DNA of 64,000 nucleotides from assembly GCF_965641715.1 (NCBI RefSeq), contig NZ_OZ282453.1. One strand, written 5' to 3'. Below the pieces are notes generated by a model. It was not told where the DNA came from. It saw only the letters and a list, made by a program, of their open reading frames with translations, and made no database searches. The stretch is from Escherichia coli. GTDB lineage: Bacteria > Pseudomonadota > Gammaproteobacteria > Enterobacterales > Enterobacteriaceae. The first letter of the stretch is position 1; the number at the start of each line of letters is the position of its first letter. Shown here one piece after another: positions 20,418-22,544 of the stretch. The position numbers and the translations under genes are program-made.

Positions 20418-20546
20418 ATGCTTATTGGCTACGTACGCGTATCAACAAATGACCAGAATACCGATCTACAACGTAATGCGTTGAACTGTGCAGGATGCGA
20501 GCTGATTTTTGAAGACAAGATAGGCGGCACAAAGTCCGAGACCTAG
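20418..20546 (+). pseudogene. truncated DNA invertase (Gin/Pin/Hin family), N-terminal 42 codons only
   Basis: MLIGYVRVSTNDQNTDLQRNALNCAGCELIFEDKIGGTKSET then stop; near-identical to N-terminus of intact invertase at 62702..63289. Confidence 0.7.
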
Positions 20547-20720
20547 GGCGGACACTGCTGTTCTTGATGCAAATTAAAGGATTAAATAGTGAGTGGCGGC
20601 CTTACTAATGTAAGGCCGCTATAATCATTTTATTAATTGCATTAATCGTGTTTTGGCCATACTTTCAATGTAATGTCCCCCAACTTTTTACCCCGTTCCA
20701 CAATATATTGCTTATGAATG

Positions 20721-22064
20721 TCAACTAAAAAACACTTTTAGCATTTCCGTTTTATCAGAGATACTCATTCCTTTATAATAAGATATGATTTCGGTATAGA
20801 AATCTCGCGCATACATAGATAGTTTACTTTGCTTCCATGTATTTTTATTTATAGGAGATAAAAATATTTTCAACCGCTCCATTGCTGGCGGGTGAACGCC
20901 ATCCTTCAATGTTGCAATTCTAACATAAGAGCCAAAGTCATCTCGAATTAAGTCGGACATTTGCTCACAGAAATGCATATGTTCAAACAATACCTCAACA
21001 CCTTCAACTATCTCATTATAATTTACATACGAGTCTTCATTATATAAAGCTGGTTCCACGCCTTCAATATTATTCACGGCCAAAAGATAGTTTGCAAGTG
21101 CATCTGCTTCGACTTCGAATCCAATTTTCTTTTTCTTCTTTGACTCAATATCACTAATTATGACTGATTTTTGCGGATGCTCGAGTATGTGGTGGGCAAT
21201 TTCGTGCATGAGTATAAAATCGATTTGGCATTCTGTTATGAATTTAACACGTTTAACTGAATCGTTGAATAAAATAGTGGGAGGTATATAAGCAATGCAC
21301 TCAACATTCGTACAGAGATAAATAACTAATGGGATAAAATGATTTATTGCTCGATAAGCCCGCGGGCGATGACTCATATGTGTAGTTGAGTAAAAATGCT
21401 CTAGTTGTCTATTAAACTCAAATAAAACATCACGTAACGCATAATTAGCCGTGATAAATCTAATTCCATCTTTGTTTGCACTGGTTGCGTTCATTCCTCG
21501 TTTTTTAATAGGAAAAAAAGCTATATTGTGTAATGATGATTCTTTAATAATCTTATTTGGTATATGTGATAATAAACGCAATTGACTAAATCTCATCCAA
21601 TAGGGGAGGAGTTTTTTGGTTTTATCAAAATTCTCTGCCATCTTACCAGATGCTGCCGCTAACGTTTTTGCAAGCGATATTTCATGCTCCTGCATCGCCT
21701 TGAGCATGTTGTTAGAATTAGGTTCGTTCCAACTCATTACAAATGTATTCCTAATTCCTGAAAATATAGTTTCCCATATTTTTTGGTCATGATAATTACA
21801 TGCACTTGTTATCAATTCCTTCTGAGTATCAGATAGCTCAGGAAAAGAACTGTAGTCAACGACCATGAAAGACTCTAGGTCTATAACCATATTAAATCTA
21901 TTTCCACCGAGCTCCTTCCTGCAAGACTCAGGAACCCCGAGGTACGTTTCGGCCATGATAATGTCTATTTGGTGCTGCTTTAGCAAGATATCACATAGTT
22001 TGTTATCCTTGGCAATTCGATCATAATAATATTTGTTGTACCCAGATAAATTTTGCATAAACAT
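20721..22064 (-). CDS. hypothetical protein with C-terminal HExxH metallopeptidase-like motif
   Basis: 447-aa ORF, strongly AT-rich; motif FILMHEIAHHILEH; alternative start ATG at 22058. Confidence 0.5.
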   Translation of the reverse strand: MFMQNLSGYNKYYYDRIAKDNKLCDILLKQHQIDIIMAETYLGVPESCRKELGGNRFNMVIDLESFMVVDYSSFPELSDTQKELITSACNYHDQKIWETIFSGIRNTFVMSWNEPNSNNMLKAMQEHEISLAKTLAAASGKMAENFDKTKKLLPYWMRFSQLRLLSHIPNKIIKESSLHNIAFFPIKKRGMNATSANKDGIRFITANYALRDVLFEFNRQLEHFYSTTHMSHRPRAYRAINHFIPLVIYLCTNVECIAYIPPTILFNDSVKRVKFITECQIDFILMHEIAHHILEHPQKSVIISDIESKKKKKIGFEVEADALANYLLAVNNIEGVEPALYNEDSYVNYNEIVEGVEVLFEHMHFCEQMSDLIRDDFGSYVRIATLKDGVHPPAMERLKIFLSPINKNTWKQSKLSMYARDFYTEIISYYKGMSISDKTEMLKVFFS

Positions 22065-22163
22065 CTTCTCTTATTAGATTAATAATATTATATTTCACCA
22101 TTGCTGAGTCTGTCCAACAGTGCTTGTTCTGAATTGCCACGGATAATCTAGACACTTCTCAAC

Positions 22164-22375
22164 TATTGATACTGGTTTTCGTATTCAGTTGGTTGCATCT
22201 GATCGCTCGAACCATGCCTTCGTTTACTGTTATACAACATTTCGATGTAATCAATAATATCGCTATGTGCTTCTTACCACGTTCTGTAGATCTTTTTCTT
22301 TATCCGCTCACGTTTCAGCAACTAGAAAAAGTTTTCTGCAACCACATTATTGTGACAGTTACCGCGACCATTCAT
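22164..22375 (-). pseudogene. IS3-family transposase remnant
   Basis: Minus-strand translation gives MNGRGNCHNNVVAENFF*LLKRERIKKKIYRT.*EAHSDIIDYIEMLYNSKRRHGS... with in-frame stops, resembling an IS3-family OrfB C-terminus. Confidence 0.45.
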
Positions 22376-22544
22376 ACTATCCTCCAGACCGTGTGATTTC
22401 AGGAACTACTAACGCTCATGGCTTGTGACCTGCTCCCTGATAATTCACACAGAAGGCTATTAGCAATGTCCGTTGATCGCTCACAGCCGACATTCAGCCC
22501 ACTAAATCCGACCGCGTCGATCAATATGCGGACAGGCTGTAGTA

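Follow-up and report, generated by a model that had tools for sequence, protein, structure and literature searches.

How did a tail-fibre invertase gene at the right end of an Escherichia coli prophage come to be cut short after some 41 codons, and by what route was the DNA that now follows it acquired? The gene is a pin-type stub in a 64,000-nucleotide (nt) stretch of the E. coli chromosome (contig NZ_OZ282453.1), referred to here as the window, and the DNA under study (20418..22540) lies between this stub and the prophage integrase gene intS. The original prediction, made from the letters alone, explained the interval by one event, in which an insertion sequence (IS) of the IS3 family inserted two cargo genes, cut the invertase gene and then decayed. 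Part of that account stands: the invertase gene is cut short, foreign cargo has taken over the interval between it and the integrase gene, and within that interval lies a decayed IS3 fragment. The part that fell was the single IS-mediated insertion as the cause of the truncation, because the truncation junction is common to 302 other genomes and, in 39 of 39 of those listed, stands next to a gmrSD restriction gene. We consider it likely, from the arrangement of remnants described below, that the interval is a variable cargo slot between the tail-fibre invertase and intS, with at least three separate rearrangement scars and a stepwise history.

The prophage is a tailed phage integrated at a tRNA-Arg gene (argW), and its right end reads, in order, baseplate genes, the invertible tail-fibre segment, the invertase stub, the studied interval, intS, tRNA-Arg and yfdC. 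The window is 100% identical to assembly contig L011 over 15000..26000 and, the invertible segment aside, 99.97% identical over 20337..23400 to the closed genome of strain TL20, in which the NCBI Prokaryotic Genome Annotation Pipeline already labels both the invertase stub and the IS3 fragment as pseudogenes. We read 25 carrying contigs; an identical copy of the 445-amino-acid (aa) protein encoded in the interval was represented by 10 contexts, all 10 of which showed the same argW architecture. An assembly artefact was rejected on the basis of these 10 contexts and of the closed genome.

The invertase truncation and the gmrSD remnant

The stub is a pseudogene at 20418..20546 on the plus strand, with a coding span of 20418..20543 and a stop codon at 20544..20546; its 42 codons comprise 41 homologous codons followed by one for Thr. 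Judged from its sequence, its ancestry as a Din-family serine invertase appears clear: residues 1-41 include the VRVST motif, and the stub matches positions 2-47 of the 145 in the Pfam Resolvase model (E=7e-8). As had been proposed, it matches the intact invertase of a second prophage in the window (62702..63289, minus strand; Pfam Resolvase and HTH_7) over 41 residues, 35 of which are identical (E=9e-25). The predicted truncation was equally borne out, as the frame stops after codon 42 and blastn homology with the intact pinE genes of related prophages is lost at 20539, within codon 41. The catalytic domain is incomplete, and blastn and alignment, in which pin homology ends at 20539, revealed no full catalytic domain, E-helix or C-terminal helix-turn-helix in the stub. 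By contrast, the frameshifted similarity said to continue for a few codons dissolved on alignment: identity over the ~30 nt concerned is ~55% (our count from a MAFFT alignment), indistinguishable from chance.

The DNA beyond the truncation point belongs to an earlier occupant of the slot. On the minus strand, 20642..20698 reads ERGKKLGDITLKVWPKHD followed by a stop codon, compared with ILERGKKLGEIALKVWPKHD and a stop codon in APEC O1, which is the C-terminus of GmrSD. The last 18 codons and the stop codon of a GmrSD (DUF262) type IV restriction gene are thus retained at 20642..20702 (minus strand; translation match), and similarity to the stub-plus-gmrSD family extends to ~20702. Neither GmrSD_N nor GmrSD_C is complete in the window, whereas the full-length gene in relatives matches PADLOC mREase_IV over 629 of 629 positions and both Pfam domains, GmrSD_N and GmrSD_C.

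The 171 nt from the truncation point (20535..20705), hairpin included, were found at 94-96% identity in 303 of 5426 complete E. coli genomes (~5.6%). For the gene downstream we relied on the 39 records listed among the 302 other carrier genomes: a convergent DUF262/GmrSD gene stands next to the junction in 39 of 39, and the relatives opened among them have no IS at the truncation junction. The stub-plus-gmrSD module ends prophages at ssrA (APEC O1), at tRNA-Pro (EC_J_9 and TW14425) and, near the pao genes, a lambdoid prophage; since it is found on several prophage backbones, it must be old and have moved between them. The shared junction, together with the GmrSD C-terminus, indicates that the window lineage descends from the stub-plus-gmrSD arrangement, and because the gmrSD remnant separates the stub from the present cargo, the truncation predates that cargo. 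The original prediction had named, as a finding that would speak against it, relatives in which the same truncated invertase occurs but the cargo does not, and such relatives do in substance exist, with gmrSD in the place of the cargo. No IS sequence, whether a second copy or a remnant, was found at 20540 or 20702. As far as these sequences allow the events to be read, the truncation is unrelated to the present cargo or to the IS.

The 3′ flank of the former gmrSD gene (20547..20641, minus strand; 94-96% identity with the 302 other genomes) contains a hairpin, GCGGCCTTAC-TAAT-GTAAGGCCGC, with a perfect 10-bp stem at 20596..20619 and an extended stem at 20593..20622. It folds at −19 to −26 kcal/mol (z −5.4 to −6.5 relative to shuffles) and is a terminator-like structure that probably separated pin from the gmrSD gene convergent with it. 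The hairpin had been noticed before, but was placed at 20589..20616 and at the junction itself, whereas it lies ~55 nt to the right of the junction.

Two other genomes carry damaged invertase genes of a different kind. In KKa019 (L031, 4001..5165), a prophage of the same type underwent an independent invertase truncation that retained ~261-267 nt, and a convergent gene for a 281-aa hypothetical protein follows the truncated invertase at the prophage end. In WCHEC035148 (L030, 3804..7674), a 3′-only invertase fragment lies directly upstream of a McrBC-like pair of AAA ATPase and McrC genes, with IS1 on the opposite side.

The AT-rich module, its lost partner gene and the IS3 remnant

Beyond the gmrSD remnant lies an AT-rich module (20703..22064, minus strand; profile and structure matches) made up of the intact 445-aa gene and ~18 nt of its own 3′ flank, which resembles the flank of the homolog at locus L019. 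The coding sequence spans 20721..22058, or 20721..22064 with 447 codons when counted from the first ATG. The AT-richness of the DNA downstream of the stub, already remarked upon in the original prediction, is pronounced: at 0.35, the GC content over 20703..22129 falls short of the values for the phage tail module (0.48) and the chromosome (0.50).

The closest homologs of the 445-aa protein (70-72% identity; L018 and L019) are each preceded by a co-directional gene for a 227-aa protein, with a gap of 26 bp. In the window, the 39 nt beside the outer end of the IS encode EQALLDRLSNGEI and a stop codon, and at the same position L018 encodes EQALLNRLSNGGS and L019 EQALLNKLNNSAN, each likewise followed by a stop codon; the similarity to the 227-aa genes holds at the DNA level too. 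The window thus keeps the last 13 codons and the stop codon of a partner gene (22088..22129, minus strand; translation match), and since this C-terminus abuts the IS outer end, the partner gene is broken by the IS3 end at a point 13 codons short of its stop. The 200-aa protein encoded further to the right was considered as the missing 227-aa partner and rejected (blastp E=3.8).

The IS3-family remnant (22130..22426, minus strand, 297 bp) consists of the outer terminal repeat, which begins TGAATTGCCACGG at 22130, and the last ~88 codons of OrfB; it is internally truncated and contains four in-frame stops, counted against an intact IS copy. An IS3-family OrfB C-terminus with in-frame stops had been predicted here, and its resemblance to a transposase was confirmed (NCBIfam transpos_IS3, positions 295-369 of 369, E=1.6e-20; Pfam rve_2, 3.9e-12), although the fragment proved larger than the 22164..22375 proposed. 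It also lies, as stated at the time, between two genes, the 445/447-aa open reading frame (20721..22064) and the 200-aa open reading frame (22545..23147), both on the minus strand. The remnant has a GC content of 0.40 and a DNA identity of ~85% with IS3-family copies in ~1000 genomes, spanning 22130 to 22426. Only one IS end is present, the other having been deleted; it is a remnant and not a complete element.

The inner boundary of the IS, at 22426/22427, was recovered against L002, L004 and L005 alike. When a three-way alignment was mapped onto this blastn boundary, the point at which the IS interior meets the 200-aa module fell at approximately 22418..22433, where a 7-bp sequence, CCCTGAT, is present in both parents. 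Microhomology at the inner break argues for illegitimate recombination and not for transposition, and the sequence as a whole suggests that an IS inserted and that an illegitimate deletion or recombination came afterwards, rather than that transposition delivered the cargo.

The 200-aa module and the limits of the slot

The right part of the interval is a conserved module (22427..23450, minus strand) recognized by homology with other prophages. It carries the 200-aa gene, the product of which is predicted to be an N-terminally membrane-spanning, coiled-coil protein and gave only weak matches to transmembrane regions. NADC1036, Bongo and CREC-2 align with the window from 22426/22427 on, that is, from 119 bp downstream of the 200-aa gene. 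At argW, NADC1036 carries an intact pinE, a 299-aa gene, the same 200-aa gene and intS. Since the 200-aa gene stands there beside an intact pinE, it is a resident of the conserved module and was not brought in together with the IS-associated cargo, and its listing as a second cargo gene in the original prediction has to be withdrawn. In the related prophage of PEC122 the slot is empty, with an intact pinE 190 bp from intS; this prophage can be aligned with the window up to 20539 and again from 23451 (86.7% identity in the aligned baseplate region), which defines the limits of the slot.

What lies beside pin varies from nothing at all to a 299-aa plus 200-aa pair, mcrA, gmrSD or McrBC-like genes, and the site next to the invertase would, on this sequence comparison, seem to be a recurrent home of restriction-conflict genes. 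PADLOC, Pfam and NCBIfam returned no match for the 200-, 227-, 299-, 345- and 410-aa slot proteins. Genes of the 200-aa type occur at the ends of different prophages, at argW and near torT (window 22545..23147; L002 5870..6769; L004 3072..5776), and the neighbour is always a different, unannotated gene, encoding 299, 345 or 410 aa. The 200-aa gene could be what stays fixed in a two-gene module that otherwise varies.

These junctions bear directly on the proposal that a single IS3-mediated insertion brought both cargo genes and cut the invertase at codon 42, after which the IS decayed. Such an event would explain why a decayed IS3 fragment with a terminal repeat lies within the replaced interval, and why the interval is AT-rich. 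It is at odds, however, with the presence of the junction in 302 other genomes, of which the 39 listed carry gmrSD and those opened lack an IS there, with the gmrSD remnant that separates the stub from the present cargo, and with the co-occurrence of the 200-aa gene and an intact pinE. Moreover, the IS end lies within a gene of the cargo itself, the partner gene, the other junction of the IS is a microhomology with no IS end, and a second IS copy or remnant was not found at either 20540 or 20702. We regard a single insertion as highly improbable.

Proposed history of the interval

A stepwise history, in which the nested remnants allow the order of the first step to be read directly, would account for these features. 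The first step, which is old and now found widely, would have put a convergent gmrSD gene, terminator hairpin included, in the place of pin beyond codon 41. In the second, confined to the window lineage, an AT-rich 227+445 module from elsewhere would have replaced gmrSD except for its last 18 codons. In the third, an IS3-family element would have come to sit in the 227-aa gene, 13 codons before the stop, and illegitimate recombination at a 7-bp microhomology would have linked the inner part of the IS with a site 119 bp downstream of the 200-aa gene, a join that would have removed most of the IS and most of the partner gene. The second and third steps may have occurred in either order: the IS could have inserted after the arrival of the module and a deletion followed, or the donor could already have carried the interrupted module. 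The latter is mildly favoured by the sequence because the IS remnant is heavily decayed in genomes that are otherwise near-identical.

Another reading has one double-crossover with a foreign donor, which already carried the IS-interrupted 227+445 module, install 20703..22426 ready-made, with no IS activity in this prophage. This would be a variant of the second and third steps, and does not compete with the first. The IS remnant is ~15% diverged from the E. coli IS copies found and carries four nonsense mutations, yet the carriers are near-identical, which suggests that decay predated arrival; in addition, the right junction is a microhomology, and the GC content of the IS remnant is nearer to that of the cargo than to that of the host. 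On the other hand, no donor with the same IS-interrupted module was found in the E. coli, phage and plasmid searches or at L018/L019. We give this one-step exchange somewhat less than an even chance. The outcome is a prophage in which the cis invertase is dead and the invertible segment, with both crossover sites and the presumed enhancer retained, still inverts.

The invertible segment and its enzyme

The invertible tail-fibre region is of the P-segment type (18412..20356) and has at its borders a pair of 20-nt inverted repeats (18412..18431 and 20337..20356) that are complementary at 19 of 20 positions. The right crossover site holds CCTTCTCCCAAACCAA (20336..20351), identical to the e14 P-segment repeat reported in PMC12529663. 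Two inverted crossover sites of ~26 bp were taken as the mark of a Din-type switch, and such a pair of sites is present here. Locus L010 shares all scars with the window and L011 but carries 18412..20356 in inverted orientation, with 2 mismatches in 1945 nt (99.9%), and both orientations of the segment are represented among 10 loci. Because the inversion distinguishes genomes that share every scar, the segment must have flipped after the truncation of the invertase. Inversion by RecA was judged unlikely, as we consider repeats of 20 nt too short for it. In TL20 and one other carrier (L001/L013 and L009; window 18412..19941), the segment is flipped and 6% diverged, more so at one end, with flanks that are 99.7-100% identical; the content of the invertible segment seems to have been exchanged between prophages.

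A candidate trans-acting enzyme is the intact Gin-like invertase of the second prophage, which is 86% identical to Mu Gin and has a near-Mu gix site, TTCCTGTAAACCGAGGTTTTAGATAA, upstream. The second prophage (53700..64000) is not present in TL20, where flk and pdxB adjoin. The e14 P segment is inverted in trans by PinQ and PinR (PMC12529663), and inversion across systems by PinE and by Fin is cited within the same article. Invertases of co-resident prophages, acting in trans, are the most likely drivers of the flipping.

The stub may also contain a Fis-dependent recombinational enhancer. The Hin enhancer is 65 bp long, lies ~100 bp from hix and is embedded in the N-terminal part of the coding sequence (PMC3798978, PMC2724282), and the Gin enhancer is located inside the invertase gene according to the title of Kahmann 1985, cited in PMC3798978. 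Transferred to the window, this position predicts an enhancer at 20436..20505, where two G-N13-C cores (20439..20453 and 20488..20502) are found; neither block differs between pin and Mu gin, even at synonymous positions. The putative enhancer would be wholly retained within the stub.

If so, the stub might have been kept as functional DNA, with the first ~125 bp of pin acting as a cis Fis enhancer; only truncations that spare it would leave a tail-fibre switch that can be worked in trans, and these would be favoured. In line with this idea, the segment flips after the truncation, the location of the enhancer in Hin and Gin falls within the stub, and the second, independent 3′ truncation in KKa019 (at ~nt 261) also keeps the 5′ end and the segment, which is suggestive only; moreover, WCHEC035148, with its 5′-deleted pin, has no invertible segment in the annotated stretch read. 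Conversely, cargo that enters from the prophage end removes the 3′ end first on geometry alone, a single event lies behind the 303 stub copies, and conservation of the stub does not exceed that of its surroundings, the divergence between the window and APEC O1 being ~6.6% in the stub and ~4-5% in the non-coding flank (our count from the alignment). We think it somewhat unlikely that the stub was retained for this function.

The 445-aa protein

The 445-aa protein is rare: a search of 5.8 billion sequences yielded four clusters, and an exhaustive search for the family yielded 47 representatives at 50% identity. Elsewhere among E. coli, DNA of the gene was found in TL20 only. A phage protein search gave no match, and a plasmid search recovered only distant homologs (36-40% identity), on conjugative plasmids of Proteus, Moellerella and Klebsiella. 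Throughout the family, the HExxH motif, a downstream Glu and an Asp are all invariant; Pfam Peptidase_M48 matches 25 of 32 family members, and a match to the M48 fold was obtained as well. The protein of the window itself falls below the curated cut-offs of the Lit, U49 and M48 models: NCBIfam Lit scores 16 bits, where 274 would be required, PADLOC Lit gives E=6e-4 over 27 residues in the HExxH region only, and the precomputed Pfam U49 match is graded only faint or weak. Its sequence features are like those of an M48/Lit-like zinc metalloprotease. From its position and its resemblance to Lit, we would tentatively suggest an abortive-infection-type anti-phage gene comparable to Lit; the product of the slot today is most likely one orphan metalloprotease.

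Together with its lost 227-aa partner, the 445-aa protein may represent an undescribed anti-phage protease system, although the term "two-gene system" is tentative because the partner is confined to two close homologs. In L018 (1..17338, GC content 0.43), the contig that carries the intact 227+445 operon also contains RES-domain, DUF2971, DUF4942 and H-NS-like genes, and looks like a defence or mobile island. A more far-reaching proposal combines this system, as a separate element, with the idea that the 5′ 122 bp of pin are kept in ~5.6% of E. coli genomes as a Fis enhancer, the invertase body having been traded for defence cargo and a still functional switch of host range or surface borrowing the invertases of co-resident prophages; as a whole, we rate this proposal as unlikely.

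Several points weigh against the account given in the preceding sections. With regard to the history, a chimeric query found no intermediate of stub, gmrSD, 200-aa gene and intS at argW in complete E. coli genomes, and both the order of the steps and a joining of the left and right parts by recombination between two prophage types are inferred. As to the switch, the second prophage is missing from TL20, and different carriers must therefore use different trans enzymes; the position of the enhancer is carried over by analogy from Hin and Gin; and the conservation of the stub does not exceed that of its flank. As to the cargo, the 227-aa partner is seen with two close homologs only and is absent beside distant family members, and the PADLOC and NCBIfam Lit matches are weak (E ~1e-3) and confined to the HExxH region.

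Comparison with known systems

The closest parallel is e14 of E. coli K-12, which has the same crossover repeat and the same order of tail-fibre segment, invertase, type IV restriction gene and prophage end; its layout is P segment, pinE, mcrA and attR, and its P segment is likewise inverted in trans (PMC12529663). Unlike in the window, the pinE of e14 is intact, mcrA is co-directional and the attachment site is icd, whereas in the window the invertase is cut at codon 41, the convergent GmrSD-type gene has itself been replaced, and the site is argW. The genomes of APEC O1, UTI89 and IHE3034, which carry the stub together with gmrSD, have the identical junction, the downstream 160 bp and the hairpin (94-96% identity). 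They keep the 629-aa gmrSD, of which the window retains 18 codons, and those opened are on other backbones or sites. At the right end of phage Mu, the G segment, gin and com/mom present the same order of segment, Din-family invertase and restriction-conflict gene; by contrast, Mu gin is intact, and Mom is an anti-restriction DNA modification and not host-protective cargo. The Lit protein of e14 (Peptidase U49) and the M48 proteases BepA and Ste24 have an HExxH zinc-protease core in common with the 445-aa protein, the gene of which is prophage-borne but the N-terminal half of which is distinct from those of Lit and the M48 proteases.

Variable hotspots for defence or "moron" genes exist at prophage ends, for example in P2 and P4. 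As in the slot of the window, the position of such hotspots is fixed, the flanks are conserved and the content changes between close relatives; unlike in those hotspots, the swaps in the window ate into the flanking phage gene pin and left nested cargo remnants. We regard the locus as ordinary prophage mosaicism at a cargo hotspot that provides two modest leads, namely orphan switches driven in trans and a metalloprotease family. It would be an example, dated by nesting, of anti-phage cargo repeatedly overwritten at one prophage position, with a remnant for each former tenant (the pin stub, 18 gmrSD codons, 13 partner codons and an IS end), and it illustrates that an IS fragment inside a replaced interval need not be the delivery vehicle.

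The locus further suggests that invertible tail-fibre segments which have lost their own invertase and still flip form a common class that has drawn little notice. Orphan switches of this kind bear on how phase-variable prophage loci are read, and on the reported effect of P-segment inversion on adsorption of phage T2 (PMC12529663). Should the stub indeed act as an enhancer, it would make an orphan phase-variable locus dependent on the rest of the mobilome. The metalloprotease family, rare and predicted with structural confidence, may be regarded as a candidate for a defence gene.

Additional features of the locus

A promoter-like site, TGGACA-18-TATAAT, lies just upstream of the 445-aa gene (22087..22116, minus strand) and agrees at 11 of 12 positions, as judged by consensus match alone. 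To the right of the slot, the integrase gene intS occupies 23482..24675 on the minus strand (open reading frame list and TL20 annotation), and the tRNA-Arg gene that serves as the attachment site occupies 24804..24875, the sole match in an Rfam scan of 18000..25500. In front of the stub, a G9 homopolymer (20406..20414, plus strand; alignment with relatives) takes the place of the usual pin ribosome-binding region, where GGGGATCT or GGAGATCT normally precedes the pin start codon. The homopolymer is G9 in the window, L011 and L016, and G8 in TL20 and six other near-identical loci, a difference that may reflect either slipped-strand variation or a homopolymer sequencing error. Finally, the TL20 annotation places a gene for a HEPN-domain protein within the tail/baseplate block of the prophage, at 14665..15036 of the window (L001 317..688).

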